64,000 bases of DNA, from positions 68,565-132,564 of the forward strand of contig DAOUJG010000053.1 of the NCBI GenBank assembly GCA_034423015.1, given 5' to 3'. The notes under the pieces are model-generated. The model was not told the origin of the DNA, made no database searches, and saw nothing but the letters and a program-made list of their open reading frames with translations. Origin of the DNA: Dehalococcoidia bacterium. GTDB lineage: Bacteria; Chloroflexota; Dehalococcoidia; Lucifugimonadales; JAGWBF01. A program made the position numbers and the translations under genes. Numbering within the stretch: the stretch's first letter is position 1; each line of letters opens with the position of its first letter. Positions 261-11,300 of this stretch are shown here, piece by piece.

Positions 261-417
261 CAGCCCCGGACCCCCTTCCTCAAACCGGTAATCCATCACA
301 CCTCCCTGGGGCAGGGGGATACCCCAACCCTTGCCCGACGGTCGAGGCCGTTGGTAGACTAGGTGTGGGAGAACAGCGCGGGTCGTCCCCGTGACCGGGA
401 CGGCCGGGAGGCATTGA

Positions 418-780
418 ATGGAGTGCGAGGAGCATGGCCGGACGGCAAGGCAGTTCCTGGCCGCATCCGACGAGGAGTTCGCCGCTGGAGACCACCTGCA
501 GGCCTCCGAGAAGCTATGGGGCGCAGCCTCCCACGCCGTCATGGCCGCGGCCGTGCTTCGGGACTGGCCCTGCCGGACCCACCGGGAGCTGAAGAACGCG
601 GTGGAGAGGCTGAGCGAGGAGAAGGCCGACGAGGGGTTCGCCGCTGGTTTCTACGCCGCGGAGAATTTCCACAAGAACTTCTACCACGACGAGATGGAAC
701 CCTACCAGATCGAGATCGATCGTCCCCGGGTGCATCGTTTCGTAGACCGGGTGCTGGCGACCCTGGCGCCGGACGACTAG
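418..780 (+). CDS. PaREP1/HEPN-like all-helical protein
   Basis: 120-aa ORF with a GGGAGG SD about 7 nt upstream. The segment FLAASDEEFAAGDHLQASEKLWGAASHAVMA resembles the PaREP1/HEPN-like helical family (SEKxWGA signature) as I recall it. I see no clear Rx4-6H motif. Confidence 0.55.
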   Translation: MECEEHGRTARQFLAASDEEFAAGDHLQASEKLWGAASHAVMAAAVLRDWPCRTHRELKNAVERLSEEKADEGFAAGFYAAENFHKNFYHDEMEPYQIEIDRPRVHRFVDRVLATLAPDD

Positions 781-798
781 CCCGCTACCACCCATTGA

Positions 799-984
799 TT
801 GGAGCGCTCCATGGAGAACATCCTGAACCTGTCCCGGCAGCCCAAGACCCTGGACCTGGAGAGGACCGACGACGGGACCCTCCGGCTGGTCATCACCCTG
901 AAGAAGCTCGGCCAAGTCTCGGCTATGGAGTACTTCCTTGACGGGGAGGACGCCCGGAAGCTGGCCGAGGCCCTGGGGAGCTAG
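799..984 (+). CDS. small hypothetical protein (61 aa)
   Basis: The ORF sits between the HEPN-like and caspase-like genes, 18 nt after the previous stop and 30 nt before the next start. The ATG at 811 has a better SD (TGGAG) than TTG 799. No domain recognised. Confidence 0.4.
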   Translation: MERSMENILNLSRQPKTLDLERTDDGTLRLVITLKKLGQVSAMEYFLDGEDARKLAEALGS

Positions 985-1014
985 CCGGGCCGGGGCCGGC
1001 AAGAGAGGCCGCCA

Positions 1015-1590
1015 GTGCTCTGGAGCTCAGCGTCCATACCGGGCAAGCCTGCGCTGCTCATCGTCGACGCATCCGGCGACGTCCAGGGTTGGGAGTCCGA
1101 GTTCTGCGACCGGATATACTCGAGCCTGCGGAAGAGGGGGCTCGACCTGAAGTCCCAGGGCCCCGTGCGAGTGCGGGAGCCCGGGGAGTTGTCCCCCCAC
1201 CTGAGGTACGCTGGGCTCAACTCCATCCTGCTACTGGGGCATGGCGGCGGAGGGACATCGGGCGAAGGGATCGAGGCCTACTGGTCCTGGCTGGCGGAGC
1301 GGGAAGGGCTGCCGCCCCTGCTCCTGGCCGTGTGCACCTGGGAGAGCCACGACCCGGCCCTGACCGACCGGGTGCTGGGCGGGTCCGACGGGTTCGCGCC
1401 CCTGGCCGTGGCCCAGAAGTCCCCATTGGGCCCCCGGGAGGCCGGCCTCTACTTCCTCAAGTTCTTTACCGAGTTGGACCTTCACTCCGAGGACGCCATC
1501 ACCGGCCGGATGGTCTGGTTCTCCGACTCCAAGGCGAGGGAGCTCCTGAAGCGCCGCAGGCTCCCGGGGCTTGTGGGGGTGCGCTGCTGA
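1015..1590 (+). CDS. hypothetical protein with caspase/CHAT-like His...Cys signature
   Basis: GTG start preceded by AGAGAGG. A hydrophobic strand plus His-Gly (ILLLGHGGGG) is followed about 30 aa later by a hydrophobic strand plus Cys (LLLAVCTWES). This is the layout of clan-CD peptidases. The assignment is inference only. Confidence 0.5.
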   Translation: MLWSSASIPGKPALLIVDASGDVQGWESEFCDRIYSSLRKRGLDLKSQGPVRVREPGELSPHLRYAGLNSILLLGHGGGGTSGEGIEAYWSWLAEREGLPPLLLAVCTWESHDPALTDRVLGGSDGFAPLAVAQKSPLGPREAGLYFLKFFTELDLHSEDAITGRMVWFSDSKARELLKRRRLPGLVGVRC

Positions 1591-3950: not shown

Positions 3951-4415
3951 CTAGCCCAGCTTGTCCAGCTCCGCCAGGATGTCCCTGGGATCGGGGAGGT
4001 TGGGGGGCGAGTACTCCTGCCTGAACCGGATGACCCCGCCCTTGTCCACGATTATGATGGCCCGGCGGCTGGCGCCCCGTTCCTCGTTCCACAGCCCGTA
4101 GGACTTGACCATCTCCCCGTGGGGATGGAAGTCGGAGAGGAGGGGGTAGGGTATGTTCCCAAGGCCCGTCGAGTAGGCGCGGTGGGAGTGTTGGCTGTCA
4201 CAGCTTATGCCCAGGACCTGGGCATCCTTCTCCTCGAACTGGCCGTTGTACTGCCGGAACGAGGAGACCTGGTTCGTTCACCCGCCTGTGAAGTCGAAGA
4301 CGTGGAAGGAGAGCACCACGTTCTTCTGGCCCCGGTACTGGCCCAGGGAAACGTCGTCTCCCAGGCTGGAGGGCATCGTGAAATCGGGAGCGGGCTGTCC
4401 CACCTCGGCTGCCAT
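3951..4415 (-). CDS. peroxiredoxin (AhpC/TSA/Bcp type) with in-frame UGA at the peroxidatic Cys position; selenocysteine candidate
   Basis: A single frame from ATG 4413-4415 to TAG 3951-3953 reads MAAEVGQPAPDFT...VVLSFHVFDFTGG-TGA(4278-4280)-TNQVSSFRQYNGQFEEKDAQVLGISCDS...IIIVDKGGVIRF...LDKLG. The TGA aligns with Cys of the FTGVCTDE motif in the adjacent paralog. Confidence 0.75.
4230..4266 (-). promoter_or_regulatory. candidate bacterial SECIS hairpin downstream of the UGA at 4278-4280
   Basis: On the mRNA, CUCCUCG...CGAGGAG forms a 7-bp stem starting 11 nt after the UGA. A short inner CCG/CGG pairing is possible and the apical region contains GU. Not folded computationally. Confidence 0.4.
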
Positions 4416-4456
4416 GCTGCGTACCTCCTAAAGCTGACCTGCGGCCCGGCTGGGGG

Positions 4457-4933
4457 CTATCCTCCCAGGCCGCTCAGGGCCTGCCTGATCTCGTCGTAGT
4501 CGGGCTCCGCGGTGACCTGTGGGGCGACCCACTTGTACCGGACCACCCCGCCCTTGTCCACCACGAACACCGCCCGGTTGGCCGCCGTGTACCCCTCCAT
4601 CCCGGCCAGGTTGGGGAGGGCGACCCCGTACTGGTTCACCACCTGGCGGGTGAAGTCGCTCAGCAGGGGGAAGTTGAGGTTGTTGGCGTCGGACCACGCC
4701 TTCTGGGCGAAGGGCGGGTCTACGCTTATGCCCAGCACCTGGGCGTTCAGGGAGTTGAACTGGTCGGCCCGGTCCCGCAGGGCGCACATCTCGTCGGTGC
4801 AGACCCCGGTGAAGGCGCCGGGAAAGAAGGCGAGGACCACGTTCTGCCCGTGGAGGTCGCCCAGGCTCCTGCTCTTCAGGTCGGTGCCGTGGAGGGTGAA
4901 GTCCGGGGCCGCCTGGCCGACGTCGACAGACAT
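4457..4933 (-). CDS. peroxiredoxin (AhpC/TSA/Bcp type, Cys form)
   Basis: 158 aa. It has the PxxxTxxC-type motif [12 protein letters not shown] and [12 protein letters not shown]. Confidence 0.9.
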
Positions 4934-5108
4934 GGAATAACTCCCCTTTCCAGCTACGTTGGACTCTCTACCGGCCCGTCCGGGCGTGGGGCGGCTACAT
5001 TATAGCGCATAGACGGCTGGCATACCACCGAGGGGCCCCCGGCGACGGCCCCAACGACGGTCGCCCGCTGACAATCCGCGGTCGCCCTCTCCGTCTGGAT
5101 TTGATAAG

Positions 5109-5831
5109 ATGCTCTACATGGAGATAGGAGAGGCGCAGTTGCAGGAATTACAGACCGCAGCTCGAGAACTCGGAGATAAGTTGTCCTCTGAACGTCCGAT
5201 ATTTGTTGAGTTCGCAGGCACTCCCAAGAGTGGGAAGAGCACCTGTATTGACACCGTCAACCATTTCTTCCGACGGCTGGACTATAAGGTGTTGGCGCCC
5301 ACGGAAGGTGCTTCCAAGCGAACGCCGTACTATCTCAAGGATGATTTCGTCGCATTCAATACTTGGTCAGCGGCCTACGCGTTGACTCACATCTTGGAGG
5401 GCCGCTTTGGGTCTGACCAATACCAGTTGGTCATCATGGACCGGGGACTCTTCGATGCCCTTGCCTGGTTTGAACTCCTGCGGGCTAAAGGCGACGTCAC
5501 GGAAGAAGACTGCACCGTCATTCAGAGCTTCCTGCTGGTTGGTCATTGGCGACAGCTAGTCGATGCGGTTTTCTTGTTCAAGACCGACCCGGCCACGTCG
5601 CTGGTGCGTGAGAACAGCAACAAGCTAATAGAAGAACCAGGTCGAGCCATGAACCCTGAGTTCCTTCGAGACCTGAACGACGCTTATCAATCCATCAGTT
5701 CGAAATACTCCGCGCAGTTCAGGTCCGTTTACGAGGTGGACACCGCCGGTGCCCAAGACACCACACCTCAGTCGACGGCCTTTGAGGTCGTCAAGAGAAT
5801 CGTCGACCACATTCGAAGCAGGGTAGCGTAA
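5109..5831 (+). CDS. P-loop NTPase, deoxynucleoside/NMP-kinase-like
   Basis: Walker A GTPKSGKST. VIMDRGLFDALAW resembles the DR/ERS motif of the dNK/NMP-kinase fold. A sampled line is about 48% GC, clearly below the flanks. Confidence 0.6.
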   Translation: MLYMEIGEAQLQELQTAARELGDKLSSERPIFVEFAGTPKSGKSTCIDTVNHFFRRLDYKVLAPTEGASKRTPYYLKDDFVAFNTWSAAYALTHILEGRFGSDQYQLVIMDRGLFDALAWFELLRAKGDVTEEDCTVIQSFLLVGHWRQLVDAVFLFKTDPATSLVRENSNKLIEEPGRAMNPEFLRDLNDAYQSISSKYSAQFRSVYEVDTAGAQDTTPQSTAFEVVKRIVDHIRSRVA

Positions 5832-5836
5832 TCAAT

Positions 5837-6475
5837 ATGCCCGCCAACCAAGTTCTTGTGTTCCCTCGGGCGATTTTCGGGGACGTTTTCTCGCTTTTGC
5901 CGTGGGACTCGATTCAGGAACAGATCGAGGAGATCGAAAGCACCTTTTCGTGGCTGCATCGGCCGGATGCGGAGCTGTCGCTCCATCTGGTCCAGGCAAT
6001 TCCGTGCGGATTCATTCGAGACCACGAAGGCCGGTACTGTGTGCTCAGGCGCGTGGAAAACTCCCGAAACGACCTCAACAGGAAGTTGAGCCTGGTTGTG
6101 GGGGGGCATATCGACAAGCCGCACAAGGACAGGTCGTTTCGGGCCACCATGTCGTTGAATCTCATGCGGGAGTTGGACGAGGAGGTTGGAATTCGCCCCG
6201 AGGAGCCCCCCAGTCCCGTCGGTGTAATTATCGACGATTCATCCATACAAGCTTCCCGGCACGTGGCGTTTCTGCATGAGATAACATCCGAGCAAGTCTT
6301 GCCAAGGGCGCCGGAAGAGTTTGCGGTGAGGTCGAAATACTCAGGCACGTTCATGCCTGCAGCCCGGATCGCTGAGATGTCCCACGGGTTCGACCCGTGG
6401 TCGAGACTGCTAATCGAGGAGTATGTCTGCCGGGGGGATGTCCGCCCGCAAGCCCGGCAGCGTTCGTTGTTCTGA
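5837..6475 (+). CDS. Nudix hydrolase
   Basis: Nudix box GGHIDKPHKDRSFRATMSLNLMRELDEEVGI (REx2EExGU core). The gene starts 5 nt after the kinase-like gene stop and shares its low GC. Confidence 0.7.
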   Translation: MPANQVLVFPRAIFGDVFSLLPWDSIQEQIEEIESTFSWLHRPDAELSLHLVQAIPCGFIRDHEGRYCVLRRVENSRNDLNRKLSLVVGGHIDKPHKDRSFRATMSLNLMRELDEEVGIRPEEPPSPVGVIIDDSSIQASRHVAFLHEITSEQVLPRAPEEFAVRSKYSGTFMPAARIAEMSHGFDPWSRLLIEEYVCRGDVRPQARQRSLF

Positions 6476-6507
6476 TTCACCCAGCGCCAGTCATTCTCCA
6501 ACAGCCG

Positions 6508-7653
6508 GTGGACACCCTCGAGAAAAAGGTAAAGCAATGTGCCCGGGAGCTGGGCTTCGACCTGGTGGGAATCGCCTCGGCAGAGGCCTTCTCGGAGCAT
6601 CAGGCCGTCACCCTGGAGCGTATACGCCAGGGGCTGATGGACGGGCTTCCCTGGTTCACCGAGGCCCGGGTGCGGCGCGGCTGCGACCCCCAGGCGCTGC
6701 TGCCGGGAGCCAGGTCCATCGTCACGGTGGGCATGAGCTACCACAGCCCCGACGGGGAGCCCCGGGACGGCGCCCCCGCGGGCAGGGTGGCCCGTTATGC
6801 CTGGGGGGACGACTACCACAAGGTCATCAAGCAGAGGCTCCGCGAGCTGGCCCGGCGGCTGTCCGATGGCCTGGGCAGGGAGTTGGCCGCCCGGTGGTAC
6901 GTGGACGACGGGCCGATGCTGGACCGGGCCGCCGCGGAGCGCGGGGGCATCGGCTGGTTCGGCAAGAACACCAACGTGCTGACCCGCTCCCACGGCTCCT
7001 GGGTGTTCCTCGGCCAGCTCGTCACGGACCTGGAGCTGGAGCCCGACCCTCCCCTAAAGAAGACGTGCGGAAGCTGCGTCCGGTGCATAGACGCCTGTCC
7101 CACCGGGGCCATCGTCGCGCCATACGTCATCGACAACGCCCGCTGCATCTCCCACCTGACCATCGAGAACCGCGGGCCCATTCCCCGGGAGTACCGCCCG
7201 TTGATGTACGACTGGGTCTTCGGCTGCGACATCTGCCAGGACGTGTGCCCCGTCAATCTGAAGGCCGCGTACACCAGGGAGCAGGCATTCCAAAAGCGGC
7301 GGTTCACCTCGCCGGACCTGATAGGCCTCCTCCGGATGAGCGACGAGGACTTCCGGGAGCGGTTTAGGAACAGCCCGGCCAGGCGGGCCAAGCGGTCGGG
7401 ACTTCGACGCAACGCCTGCGTGGCCCTGGGCAACGCCGGGGACCCAGGCGCCGTGCCGGCGTTGGTGGAGGCGCTGGAGGACGACGAGCCCCTGGTCAGG
7501 GGACACGCGGCCTGGGCCCTGGGCCGGCTGGGAGGCGCCGCCGCCGAGCACGGCCTGGAAGCCGCCCTTGGGAGCGAGGAGGACCCCGACGTGGTCGAGG
7601 AGATGGAGCTCGCCCTGGGCGAGGCCCGGGCCTGGAGGGCCGGGGCCTCCTAG
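6508..7653 (+). CDS. queG: epoxyqueuosine reductase
   Basis: GTG 6508 chosen, because the track ORF starting at 6397 overlaps the Nudix gene. Two ferredoxin-type motifs (CGSCVRCIDACP and CDICQDVCP) and a HEAT-like C-terminus (VRGHAAWALGRLG) are present. Confidence 0.9.
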   Translation: MDTLEKKVKQCARELGFDLVGIASAEAFSEHQAVTLERIRQGLMDGLPWFTEARVRRGCDPQALLPGARSIVTVGMSYHSPDGEPRDGAPAGRVARYAWGDDYHKVIKQRLRELARRLSDGLGRELAARWYVDDGPMLDRAAAERGGIGWFGKNTNVLTRSHGSWVFLGQLVTDLELEPDPPLKKTCGSCVRCIDACPTGAIVAPYVIDNARCISHLTIENRGPIPREYRPLMYDWVFGCDICQDVCPVNLKAAYTREQAFQKRRFTSPDLIGLLRMSDEDFRERFRNSPARRAKRSGLRRNACVALGNAGDPGAVPALVEALEDDEPLVRGHAAWALGRLGGAAAEHGLEAALGSEEDPDVVEEMELALGEARAWRAGAS

Positions 7654-8156
7654 GAGCGCCGCCGGCGGCCGCGGCCGGACGAGGGGGGCTTCTCGGGGCC
7701 CCTGGGCCGCTCTCCCCGCAACCGTCGCATCTCGTCTTCGACCAGGCCGAAGTCCCTCTTGGGCAGAAGGTGCAGGTTGGTCTGGGCGAACGCGATGTAC
7801 CAGTCCTCGGGGGCCCACCTGCGGACGTAGTCGAGCCTGGGAGCAAGCTGCCGGGCGTCGATGTACTGCTCCTCGTCAAGCACGATCTCCGGCTTGATGC
7901 GGACCCCGTAGGCCCACGCGCTCTTGCCCTCTTTGGCCCACTTGTGAGTCCCGTCCTCGAAGTATCGCGATGTGGCCGTGGCCGTGGCCGGGAAGTAGCG
8001 GTCCCTTCCCACGTAGTACAGTATCCGGTCCTCGGGCTCGATGCGCTGCGCCTTGCGGTGATACTGGGCCTTCAACCCCTGGACTGTAAACCCCAACTCT
8101 CTGATTATCCGGAAATTCTCCGGGCTGATGACCATCATCCAGTAGTTCCTGGGCAT
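7650..8156 (-). CDS. EVE/PUA-like domain protein
   Basis: ATG 8154-8156. MPRNYWMMVISPENFRIIRELG...RILYYV is typical of EVE/ASCH-like PUA-fold proteins as I recall them. The C-terminal tail is basic. Confidence 0.6.
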   Translation of the reverse strand: MPRNYWMMVISPENFRIIRELGFTVQGLKAQYHRKAQRIEPEDRILYYVGRDRYFPATATATSRYFEDGTHKWAKEGKSAWAYGVRIKPEIVLDEEQYIDARQLAPRLDYVRRWAPEDWYIAFAQTNLHLLPKRDFGLVEDEMRRLRGERPRGPEKPPSSGRGRRRRS

Positions 8157-8267
8157 CTGTTCCCCTGTTCTGTAGAAGAGGCTCCTTCTGTGAGTAATGG
8201 GTCCACTCCATTTTACCATATCGCTTCGCCTCGGGGACGCCGGACGGGGCGCCGGGCACTTGACTAA

Positions 8268-8296
8268 TTGTAGGCTATCGCTGCACATGCTATAAT
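8268..8296 (+). promoter_or_regulatory. sigma70-type promoter of metH
   Basis: TTGTAG, 17 nt, then TATAAT (8291-8296), followed by GGG. The ATG lies 30 nt downstream. Confidence 0.5.
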
Positions 8297-8325
8297 GGGT
8301 CGACCCTCGCCGCGGGCAAGACTGC

Positions 8326-11300
8326 ATGAACGAGAACGAACGCATCGACTCCCTCAAGTCCCTTCTGCAACGGCGAATACTGGTGCTGGACGGCGCCATG
8401 GGGACGTCCATCCAGGCCCTGGACCTGGGGCCGGAGGACTTCGGCGGAGCGGAGTACGAGGGGTGCAACGAGTACCTGGTCGTAACCCGGCCAGACGCCA
8501 TCTTAGGCATACACCGGAGCTACCTGGACGCCGGATGCGACATCCTGGAGACCAACACCTTCGGCGCCACGCCCCTGGTGCTGGCCGAGTACGGCCTGGC
8601 CCACGAGGCCCGGCGCATCAACCGGGAGGCCGCGGCCCTGGCGCGGCAGGCGGCGGACGAAGTCGCCACTGCCGACAGGCCGCGTTTCGTCGCCGGGTCC
8701 ATGGGCCCCACCACCAAGACAATCTCGGTGACCGGCGGCGTGACCTTCGACGAGCTGGCTGACTCGTTCCACGAGCAGGCGCTGGGCCTGTTGGAGGGGG
8801 GCGCCGACCTGCTCCTCCTGGAGACTGGCCAGGACACCCTGAACATCAAGGCCGGCCTGGAGGGCATCGACCACGCCTTCCAGGAGCTTGGGAGAGAGCT
8901 CCCGGTGGCGGTGCAGGGGACCGTGGAGCCCATGGGCACCCTGCTGGCGGGACAGGACGTGGAGGCGCTCTACACGTCCCTCGCCCACCGGGACCTGCTG
9001 TGGATAGGGCTGAACTGCGCCACCGGGCCGACCTTCATGACCGACCACGTCCGCACCCTGGCGGCCCTGTCCCGGTTCCCGGTAGCGTGCCTGCCCAACG
9101 CAGGCCTGCCCGACGAGTTCGGCAAGTACAACGAGACGCCGGAGATGATGGCGCACACCCTGGGCCTCTTCATCGCCTCCGGCTGGGTCAACCTCATCGG
9201 CGGGTGCTGCGGCACGACGCCGGAGCACATACGCCTGCTGGTCGAGGCCGCCGAGGGCGCCCCCGGCAGGCCCCTCGCCGCCGGGCGGGATACACGGGTG
9301 TCGGGCATCGAGACGGTGGTGGTGGACGAGGACGTCCGGCCCGCCATCGTCGGAGAGCGCACCAACGTCCTGGGGAGCCGCCGCTTCCGCCGCCTCATAA
9401 ACCAGGGCAGCTTCGAGGAGGCCGCCGAGGTGGGACGCCGTCAGGTGCGAAACGGCGCCCACGTGCTGGACGTGTGCCTCCAGGACCCAGACCGGGACGA
9501 GGTGGCCGACGTGACCACCTTCCTGGATGTGCTCAACAAGAAGGTCAAGGCGCCGGTCATGATCGACTCCACCGACGCCCAGGTGATCCACGAGGCCTTG
9601 AAGCGGCTCCAGGGCAAGTCCATCATCAACTCTGTCAACCTGGAGGACGGCGAGGAGCGGTTCCAGGCGGTTGTCCCGCTGGCCCGGCGGTACGGTGCGG
9701 CCCTGGTCGTGGGCTGCATCGACGACGACAAGGAGCAGGCCCAGGCCGTCACCCGGCAGCGCAAGCTGGACGTGGCCCTCAGGTCCTACGACCTCCTGAC
9801 CGGGAAGTATGGCGTGGCCCCCGAGGACCTGATCTTCGACCCGTTGGTGTTCCCGGCGGGGACGGGGGACGAGAACTACGTTGGGTCGGGAGAGGAGACC
9901 ATCGAGGGGGTACGGCTCATCAGGCAGGCGCTGCCCCGCTGCAAGACCGTCCTTGGCATTTCCAACGTCTCCTTCGGACTGCCCCCCTCGGGCCGGGAGG
10001 TGCTCAACTCGGTGTTCCTGTACCACTGCGTCCAGGCCGGCCTGGACATGGCCATCGTCAACTCGGAGTTGATGCAGCGGTACACGTCCATCCCGGAGGA
10101 GGAGCGGAGGCTGGCCGAGGACCTGATCTGGAACCGGGGCGAAGACCCGGTGGCCGCCTTCGCGGCCCACTTCAGGGACCGGCCGCCCAAGTCGACCACC
10201 GAGGAGCGGCGTAGCCTGCCCCTGGACGAGCGGTTGGCCATGGCCATCATCGAGGGGTCCAAGGAGGGGCTGGCCGAGGACCTGGACGAGGCCATGGCCG
10301 GGCGGACCCCGCTGGAGATAATCAACGGTCCGCTGATGGCGGGGATGGACGAGGTGGGGCGACAGTTCAACGCCAACCAGCTCATCGTGGCTGAGGTGCT
10401 CCAGTCGGCGGAGTCCATGAAGTTCGCGGTGGCCCACCTGGAGCCCCACATGGAGCGGGTGGACTCGGCCACCCGGGGCAAGGTGGTGCTGGCCACGGTG
10501 AAGGGCGACGTCCACGACATAGGCAAAAACCTGGTGGAGATCATCATCTCCAACAACGGTTACCAGGTGATAAACCTGGGGATCAAGGTGCCGCCCCAGG
10601 ACCTGATCGAGGCCTACCGGGAGCATAACCCGGACATCATCGGGCTGTCGGGCCTGCTGGTGAAGTCCGCCCAGATGATGGTGGAGACGGTGCGGGACTT
10701 TCGCCAGGCGGGCGTGAGTGCGCCGGTGCTGGTGGGTGGCGCCGCCCTCTCCAACCGGTTCACCCGGCTGCGCATCGCGCCGGAGTACGACGGGCTGGTG
10801 GCCTACGCCTCCGACGCCATGACGGGCCTGGCTCTGGCCAACACCATCCAGGAGGCCGACGAGCGGGAGCGGCTGGCGGCGTCGCTGACGGCCGAGTCCC
10901 GGGACCTCCTGGAGAGCGAGGAACGACGCCGGCAGGCGGAGCCGGCCGCCGGCGCGCTGCCCCCCAAGGCGGCCCAGGTCAGGCACGACTTCCCCATCCC
11001 CAACCCGCCCGACCTGCTCCTGCACGTCATACGGGACCACGACCTGCAGGAGATATTCCCGTATATCAACCCCCAGATGCTGTACGCCCGCCACCTGGGC
11101 TTCAAGGGACGGTTTGCCGATGCCCTGTCCCAGGGGGACCCGGCGGCGGTGGAGCTGCGGGAGTCGGTGCGGCGGATAGAGGACGAGGTTCTGGCCCGGG
11201 ACGACATCAACGCCGGCGCCGTCTTCAAGTTCTTCCCCTGCCGCTCCGATGGCCGGCAGGTGCTGGTGTACGCCCCCGACGGGGCGACGGTCCTGGAGCG

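Follow-up and report, generated by a model that had tools for sequence, protein, structure and literature searches.

HEPN and caspase-like domains are found together in known conflict systems (PMC3710099). Among the HEPN proteins, the HEPN-T (Parep1/8) family 'lacks R but H is conserved' (PMC3710099), and Makarova et al. described the paREP1 genes of Pyrobaculum as unpaired with an MNT nucleotidyltransferase (PMC2701414). The clan-CD peptidases (C14, C13, C50 and CHAT) have a three-layer alpha/beta fold with His-Gly after a hydrophobic strand and Cys after the next one, followed by two helices and a terminal antiparallel strand. Here, we analyzed three genes at positions 418-1590 of a 64-kb stretch of contig DAOUJG010000053.1, assembled from a Dehalococcoidia bacterium (this whole stretch is called the window below), and refer to the first, second, and third of them as g1, g2, and g3. 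An earlier note, made from the sequence alone, had read the three genes as one compact module, in which a PaREP1/HEPN-like protein, the product of a 61-aa open reading frame (ORF), and a minimal caspase/CHAT-like protein might act together in conflict or defence.

We found that g2 and g3 make up a self-contained operon of two genes that occurs only in Dehalococcoidia (Chloroflexota). The pair appears to be undescribed. Judging from the alignment of filled and empty sites, g1 is a recent insertion into the leader of this operon, confined to one genus-level group of species. We are highly confident in this architecture of a g2-g3 pair plus an inserted g1. The genes, the family of g1, and the sequence motif of g3 stand as the earlier note had them; the module and its defence role do not.

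The g2-g3 operon and the slot occupied by g1

The features of the locus, by position in the window, are:

348-360, plus strand: promoter-like block CCGTTGGTAGACT, formed by invariant columns in a four-way alignment of filled and empty sites
418-780, plus strand: g1, ATG start, 120 aa; predicted PaREP1 protein (HEPN-T clade), solitary, a putative passenger in the g2-g3 leader
811-984, plus strand: g2, ATG start, 57 aa; conserved protein of unassigned family, the partner of g3
1015-1590, plus strand: g3, GTG start, 191 aa; predicted alpha/beta/alpha protein whose fold is caspase-like or flavodoxin-like and whose family is undescribed

Chance ORFs are abundant in this high-GC window, and many overlap in the ORF list. 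We consider g1, g2, and g3 to be real genes because conserved homologues exist for each of them: g1 belongs to Pfam PaREP1, g2 is represented by 19 database clusters and 39 GTDB loci, and g3 by 194 clusters. The middle gene had been listed as an ORF at 799-984 with a TTG start and 61 codons. Its homologues are 57-62 aa long with the N-terminus MENIL, and a 57-aa product is annotated on a public contig that matches the window's own locus (L062; we number comparison loci with an L), which identifies the ATG at 811 rather than the TTG at 799 as the true start. The N-terminus of g3 (MLWSS) agrees with that of its homologues. The close same-strand packing therefore holds, with 30 nt between g2 and g3, and the g1-g2 spacer, 18 nt when measured to the TTG, is 30 nt to the real ATG. 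Each gene has its own Shine-Dalgarno (SD)-like purine run 6 nt 5' of its start, as had been proposed (GGGAGG at 406-411 for g1, GGAG at 801-804 for g2, and AAGAGAGG at 1001-1008 for g3), and the GC content of the trio is indeed host-like (0.645-0.70 versus ~0.67-0.71 in the flanks). The CCGTTGGTAGACT block resembles a TGn-extended -10 element and lies ~58 nt 5' of g1, and may act as a promoter. A sigma-70 consensus scan of the region found no promoter, and a terminator consensus scan and an Rfam scan of the same region were uninformative.

An exact 15-nt direct repeat, CCCGGGGCTTGTGGG, is present at 1563-1577 and 1598-1612, the two copies lying 35 nt apart and straddling the g3 stop codon. It falls in the 28-nt gap between g3 and a convergent HD-hydrolase gene, and may be what is left of a small duplication.

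By looking up genomic contexts and scanning one genome for each GTDB species, we obtained 49 loci with g3. Using an iterated hidden Markov model (HMM), we found g2 directly adjoining g3, amid unrelated flanks, in 39 of the 46 complete GTDB species loci, with one further locus cut by a contig end. The spacer between the two genes ranges from ~5 to 60 nt across loci, and in two species (L049 and L052) the genes are arranged head-to-head, 18 nt apart. No third recurrent neighbour of the pair was found among the flanks, in which ORFs were picked by a score based on GC content at third codon positions. The 150 nearest flanking genes represent 128 different Pfam families and are dominated by metabolic enzymes, such as amidase, luciferase-like monooxygenase, methyltransferases, and members of the enolase superfamily, and no PADLOC defence family recurs in this census. 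The neighbourhood of the pair is thus not a defence island. In the lineage of the window, the pair is part of a stable block comprising citrate synthase, Methyltransf_28, a variable slot, g2, and g3, and then a convergent HD hydrolase, TrmI, an alpha/beta hydrolase, and peroxiredoxins. The carriers are metagenome-assembled genomes (MAGs) of Dehalococcoidia/Chloroflexota, together with three loci labelled Binatia or Acidobacteriota, whose labels may be binning or labelling errors. A tblastn search of 50,697 phage and 72,556 plasmid records found no relatives of g3, of its distant clade, or of g1.

The cargo between Methyltransf_28 and g2 varies, and this slot is a hotspot. Alongside g3, g1 is present only in the three GTDB species nearest to the window, whose g3 has an identity of at least 90%, and in L062 (loci L008/L010, L011, L012, and L062), and it is missing from 43 of the 46 GTDB loci with g3. 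A relative with 80% identity (L009) has a serpin gene in the slot instead, on the opposite strand (434 aa, at 4314-5618 on the minus strand of that locus, between Methyltransf_28 and g2), and the slot is empty in relatives with 74% and 57% identity (L001 and L005). Alignment of filled and empty sites delimits an insertion of ~400 nt, made up of g1 and a short leader, between CCGTTGGTAGACT and the SD sequence and start of g2. In the empty-site relative L001, the block lies directly 5' of g2, and in L008 it occurs twice, ahead of g1 and again ahead of g2. In favour of a three-component system, the genes of the window and of L011 share one strand, with gaps of 30-33 nt, and follow a single promoter-like block; against it, the g1-g2 gap is ~120-130 nt in L008 and L012, and in L008 it holds the second copy of the block. 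g1 is probably co-transcribed with g2 and g3, and the best reading is that it is functionally independent of them.

The assignment of g1 to PaREP1 is borne out by its match to Pfam PF05942 (PaREP1/PaREP8), which at 62.7 bits (E 3.7e-17) exceeds the gathering cutoff of 24.4 and covers profile positions 5-114 of 115. g1 resembles this family in the full-length HMM match, the GDHLQASEKxWGA motif, the family His, and the missing Arg. The motif, Arg48, and His85 are invariant in an alignment of g1 with six relatives (seven sequences). The Rx4-6H catalytic motif is absent from the sequence of g1, as no Arg occurs 4-6 residues ahead of either His85 or His90 (positions -4 to -6 from His85 are Ala, Ala, and Tyr), and g1 is therefore not a canonical HEPN RNase. 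Like the genes described in Pyrobaculum, g1 is without an MNT partner: no MNT gene was found near it in the window region, L008, L011, L012, or L062, and its neighbours are Methyltransf_28 upstream and g2 downstream. The PaREP1/PaREP8 family is described as archaeal, whereas g1 is encoded by a bacterium of the Dehalococcoidia, and we classify it, from its profile match, as a new addition from bacteria to a known family that is nominally archaeal. Metagenomic PaREP1 relatives were found next to rpmB, next to a panE-like gene, in tandem between atpA and atpG, and fused to a ribbon-helix-helix (RHH)-like N-terminus, with neither g2 nor g3 nearby in any of these cases. g1, a single stand-alone gene, differs from the RHH fusion of L066 and the tandem array of L065. 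The latter consists of two PaREP1-like genes (124 aa and 132 aa, L065:2968-3749) between the ATP synthase genes atpA (alpha) and atpG (gamma) on a metagenomic contig.

Inside g1 we also observed a 22-nt direct repeat with 95% identity, at 467-488 and 626-647, the copies being 159 nt (53 codons) apart and encoding SDEEFAAG and ADEGFAAG. This nucleotide identity is unexpectedly high for an ancient internal duplication of helical hairpins.

Because g1 is confined to the closest species, appears as an insertion, and has PaREP1 relatives that stand in unrelated contexts elsewhere, the trio is not a module. Conservation of the trio only where g3 is at least 90% identical is an outcome that the earlier note had itself named as speaking against one. 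Since the trio is unconserved and g1 is an insertion into the g2-g3 leader, the pairing of HEPN with a caspase/CHAT-like protein is coincidental.

The g3 family: fold, putative site, and partner

The 194 homologous clusters of g3 are nearly all 187-203 aa long and carry no precomputed Pfam domain. Searches of g3 against Pfam (E <= 1), NCBIfam, PADLOC, and PHROG gave no match, and a permissive Pfam scan of 39 family members gave no caspase or CHAT match at E <= 10 and no recurrent family. Among PDB sequences, no relatives were found for g3, its close-clade profile, or its distant-clade profile, and no clan-CD protein was retrieved. The only domain fusion in ten longer g3 relatives was with one leucine-rich repeat protein of marginal similarity, which was uninformative.

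The AlphaFold model of g3 is a three-layer alpha/beta structure (predicted local distance difference test score, pLDDT, 93.2; predicted TM-score, pTM, 0.91) with strands at residues 13-18, 70-74, 103-107, 130-134, and 187-190 and helices that include 140-157 (a5) and 164-180 (a6). Flavodoxin-like (strand order 2-1-3-4-5) and caspase-like (2-1-3-4-5-6, with the last strand antiparallel) folds have their first five strands in common, and it is the terminal strand that distinguishes them. The parallel order 2-1-3-4-5, helices on both sides, and an Asp ending strand 1 are common to g3 and flavodoxin-like proteins. g3 differs from CheY, PurE, and flavodoxin by an extra a6 helix and a terminal strand, by TM-scores of only 0.40-0.46, and by the lack of a receiver (REC), flavodoxin, or PurE HMM match. 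The hallmarks of CheY-like receivers were likewise not found in g3: strand 3 is followed by His, R, N, Y, or E and strand 4 by Cys, with no phospho-acceptor Asp, there is no conserved Lys after strand 5 (consensus PQSPL), and there is no PF00072 match.

To place the terminal strand, we used mean-field direct coupling analysis (DCA) of 231 g3 family sequences, a noisy analysis with an effective number of sequences (Meff) of 144. The top long-range pair was L138-V187, and others were K135-G188, A115-V187, and T117-V189; because of these pairs we place strand 187-190 next to 130-134 in antiparallel orientation, which is the arrangement of the caspase-like fold and of clan CD, where the terminal antiparallel strand also comes after two helices. 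In a Foldseek search of the PDB, separase ranked only 33rd among the matches listed, yet it had the highest query TM-score there (TMq, 0.51), and no PDB caspase, legumain, gingipain, or metacaspase was among the best 50. In a viral structure library, the best match was an uncharacterised myovirus protein (A0A8S5MXG5, E 1.6e-5, TMq 0.65). Other matches there were the executioner caspase of an ascovirus (E 1.4e-3, TMq 0.51), a protein resembling metacaspases, and a caspase-domain protein from Megaviridae (TMq 0.50), and receivers and flavodoxins ranked lower. A tblastn search of phage records with g3 family members, seeking kin of A0A8S5MXG5, gave no match. Among the matches listed, the only named ones with a TM-score of at least 0.5 were separase, the ascovirus caspase, and the Megaviridae protein. 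From the model and these comparisons, we lean somewhat towards a caspase-like fold for g3. A GATase1/DJ-1-like reading of the motifs was rejected, as the best 50 PDB matches include no such protein and Cys107 does not occupy a nucleophile elbow between strand and helix (the helix begins 6 residues later).

The putative site of g3 consists of the motifs ILLLGHGGGG (His76) and LLLAVCTWES (Cys107), 31 residues apart, which come after model strands 70-74 and 103-107, the third and fourth core strands. The order of His-Gly and then Cys after successive hydrophobic strands in a three-layer alpha/beta protein, as in clan CD, had prompted the caspase/CHAT-like label, and this part of the observation stands; the acidic or polar residue ending strand 1 we take to be comparable to legumain Asn42. 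g3 is unlike clan CD in having no HMM match, a His that is not invariant, and Trp109 at the position aligned with caspase Cys163, and it is smaller, as typical caspase, metacaspase, and CHAT domains are clearly larger than 191 aa. Because both the HMM match and the invariant dyad are lacking, we do not file g3 as a caspase or CHAT protein. Across the 46 species, C107 is conserved in 45, E27 in 45, D18 in 43, and W26 in 43, and R141, K149, E153, H157, and K173, on helices a5 and a6, are conserved in all 46. From the order of secondary structure elements and the strand topology of the model, D18, W26, E27, H76, and C107 should cluster at the C-terminal edge of the sheet.

When 1.84 billion representatives were searched exhaustively with a profile, the g3 family fell into three clades:

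Clade a: the clade of the window
Clade b: intermediates in which His and/or Cys is lost and a5-a6 is retained
Clade c: rare proteins of ~200 aa with Glu27, His, and one Cys as their sole invariant polar residues and a near-invariant Asp18 (motif LLxxAHG...LCVCxG)

Alignment with hhalign clearly identifies clades a and c as homologues (probability 99.8%, E 1.7e-28). Judged by its sequences, the ancestral family resembles a small Cys/His enzyme of clan-CD-like geometry, and the site appears to have been remodelled in the window's clade, with Cys107, Asp18, and Glu27 kept, His76 present in ~80% of species, and the second Cys replaced by Trp109. In the same noisy DCA (Meff 144), Trp109 is coupled with Ser7, Ser20, and Leu72, which suggests that the clade-specific N-terminal motif LWSSxSIPG (g3 residues 3-9, window ~1021-1041) packs on the remodelled pocket at Trp109 (1339-1341). 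The closest parallel to this mix of intact and degenerate sites is offered by the pseudo-orthocaspases, in which Tyr/Ser replace His/Cys (PMC6426788).

One clade-b protein has Ser at the position of His76 and nevertheless keeps a g2 homologue, 4 nt upstream, and in the only clade-c locus with context (L059/L060) the gene stands alone after a DUF6883-DUF4926 pair, without g2. We conclude from these two cases that partnership with g2 tracks the conserved a5-a6 surface and not the His.

In g2, residues K12, E17, R25, T29, K32-L33-G34, and F42 are conserved at 95% or more. Its AlphaFold2 model (pLDDT 75.7) is a three-stranded antiparallel meander followed by a C-terminal helix. Searches of g2 against Pfam, NCBIfam, PADLOC, and PHROG found nothing significant, the only matches being IF2_N and AMIN at E > 0.1. 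In a Foldseek search of the PDB, the top seven matches were all COMM domains, none of them significant (E 0.057-0.42, TMq 0.42-0.47), among them the bacterial COMMD-like protein 9q6a (PMC13392464). COMM domains and the g2 model have in common three antiparallel strands and a C-terminal helix within ~55-70 residues. Unlike the COMMD and COMMD-like proteins that have been described, which possess a helical HN domain (PMC13392464), g2 is without one, and it has no Pfam COMM match. We treat the possibility that g2 is an obligate-dimer (COMM-like) module as a weak lead from the predicted structure.

Elsewhere in the window

Downstream of the operon, a 154-codon peroxiredoxin-like ORF on the minus strand (3951-4415) has one in-frame TGA (4278-4280) at the position of the peroxidatic Cys (FHVFDFTGG-TGA-TNQ...). 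The TGA is conserved, because relatives annotate two fragments, of 45 aa and 53 aa, and the ORF probably encodes a selenocysteine peroxiredoxin beside its Cys paralogue (4457-4933). A possible bacterial SECIS element is a hairpin with a minimum free energy of -22.9 kcal/mol (z -1.67) that begins ~11 nt beyond the UGA, on its 3' side. No tRNA-Sec was found within the 64-kb window, whose only tRNA is annotated as 'tRNA-Phe (gaa)' (10113-10202, minus strand) and is, at 90 nt, unusually long for tRNA-Phe.

A low-GC island at 5000-6600 (0.55 versus ~0.69) contains two same-strand ORFs, one encoding a 240-aa Walker-A protein (GTPKSGKST) with no family match and the other a 212-aa weakly NUDIX-like protein (E 5e-4, below the cutoff). 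This pair looks like a recent insertion, because in L008 QueG comes directly after the AhpC gene. A second dip in GC content is found at 7800-8400.

Possible roles of the pair

We favour, with evenly balanced confidence, a reading in which g2 and g3 are an operon whose products form a complex with a Cys107-centred pocket and a lineage-specific role, and g1 is an independent passenger. Under this reading, the ancestor of g3 would belong to a small family with a strict His-Gly...Cys-x-Cys site plus Asp18 and Glu27, with the strand order and His-then-Cys order of clan CD. The new, absolutely conserved basic surface of a5-a6 would have arisen together with the partner g2, which, possibly as a COMM-like dimer, would dock on it. 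The Cys107-centred pocket might serve thiol-dependent catalysis or the binding of a ligand or peptide, the role would be cellular and specific to the lineage rather than defensive, and a solitary PaREP1 gene, g1, landed in the operon leader in one genus-level group.

Several observations speak against this reading. At six loci with an intact-looking g3, no g2 was found within the fetched flanks (up to 4 kb per side). Neither sequence nor structure ties g3 significantly to a characterised enzyme: in the Foldseek search of the PDB, no match reached E < 1e-3 (best E 1.3e-3), and the leading matches, at TMq 0.40-0.46, were CheY-type receivers, PurE, and flavodoxin (RcsB REC at E 2e-3, PurE at ~1e-2, and CheY receivers at probability 0.99-1.0). 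Alignment of the g3 family to caspase-3 and legumain with hhalign was also not significant. The hhalign comparison with reference sequences of legumain, caspase-3, CheY, and DJ-1 is only a lead; caspase-3 was nominally the best of them (pairwise E 0.024, probability 2%; legumain, CheY, and DJ-1 were worse), and its non-significant alignment places the family His onto His121 and the second Cys of clade c onto Cys163. His76 is kept in only 37 of the 46 species, being R, N, Y, or E in the other nine, and the most conserved residues of the window's clade are on a5-a6, not in the putative active site. Finally, the first Cys of the clade-c CxC corresponds to Cys107, and the invariant second Cys corresponds to Trp109 in the window protein. 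Because the invariant Cys of the sister clade is Trp109 here, classical Cys/His catalysis may have been lost in the window's clade, and we regard it as possible but doubtful that g3 is an active thiol hydrolase.

The alternative that survives best, which we hold tentatively and consider less probable than the favoured reading, is that g3 is non-catalytic: a flavodoxin- or receiver-like scaffold, a metal or small-ligand binder, or a pseudo-enzyme, in which a5-a6 binds g2 or nucleic acid and D18, E27, H76, and C107 are a relic, metal, or redox site. The identity of the top PDB fold matches is what this alternative would predict, as are the conservation of a5-a6 in 46 of 46 species against 37 of 46 for H76, the presence of Trp109 at the sister clade's invariant Cys, and the retention of a5-a6, and once also of g2, by clade-b proteins that have lost His and Cys. 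Asp, Glu, His, and Cys or Cys-x-Cys are, moreover, typical metal ligands. It is harder to reconcile with the conservation of C107, E27, and D18 at 93% or more among species only 40-55% identical, which would be unusual for a dead site. The scaffold version is further weakened by the missing REC, flavodoxin, and PurE HMM matches, by the His or other residues at the receiver phospho-acceptor position, and by TM-scores to receivers of at most 0.46, under the caspase-like values.

We consider it unlikely, at the opposite end from a non-catalytic g3, that the g3 family comprises the smallest known stand-alone proteins of the caspase-hemoglobinase fold (~190 aa), an undescribed clan-CD-like group in which the ancestral clade c has a strict Asp/Glu-His-Cys site and g2, a dedicated COMM-like partner gained in Dehalococcoidia, is a substrate, inhibitor, or activating subunit, the two making up a new protease-plus-partner system for a cellular function specific to the lineage.

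A toxin-antitoxin (TA) or abortive-infection module, with g3 as a minimal caspase-like protease toxin and g2 as its antitoxin, inhibitor, or substrate, is improbable. A small gene and a larger one kept as a pair is what is seen in type II TA systems, and here the small gene lies 30 nt ahead of the larger one, the pair relocates as a unit among genomic contexts, HicAB-like genes or transposases are sometimes nearby, and g3 has a clan-CD-like motif and fold. Some genomes also have two copies: MAG S1_19 has two g2-g3 copies on separate contigs (L014 and L029, 55% and 52% identical to the window g3), and in L052 a second, partial g3-like ORF (4909-5421) lies ~400 nt 3' of the first. The mobility of TA systems is not apparent, however: the pair occurs in one bacterial class without cross-phylum patchiness, its identity appears to track relatedness (an assessment based on local synteny and identity), the plasmid and phage records searched contained no copies, and neither gene matches PADLOC or belongs to a known TA or defence family. 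The flanks are metabolic and not enriched in defence genes, g2 has no recognisable DNA-binding antitoxin fold, and the putative catalytic His is lost in 20% of species, with the pair kept. A single three-component conflict system of HEPN (g1), g2, and caspase/CHAT-like g3 is very improbable and already largely refuted by lack of conservation, since the close spacing in the window and L011 and the known co-occurrence of such domains are set against the absence of g1 from most g3 loci, its recent insertion in filled versus empty sites, the existence of PaREP1 relatives without g2 or g3, and the missing canonical RNase motif.

The main present value of these results is corrective: what looked like a HEPN-caspase conflict module arose from a recent insertion and not from a functional association, and what is conserved is a pair of unannotated genes specific to uncultured Dehalococcoidia. 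Should g3 be an active minimal hydrolase of the caspase fold, it would set the lower size limit of that fold, and the family would present active, remodelled, and dead clades side by side, with a tractable 191-aa protein and its natural 57-aa partner as a model for the evolution of clan-CD-like sites. The locus is also a record of PaREP1 genes, whose family is described as archaeal, occurring in bacteria as small, solitary insertions within housekeeping loci.

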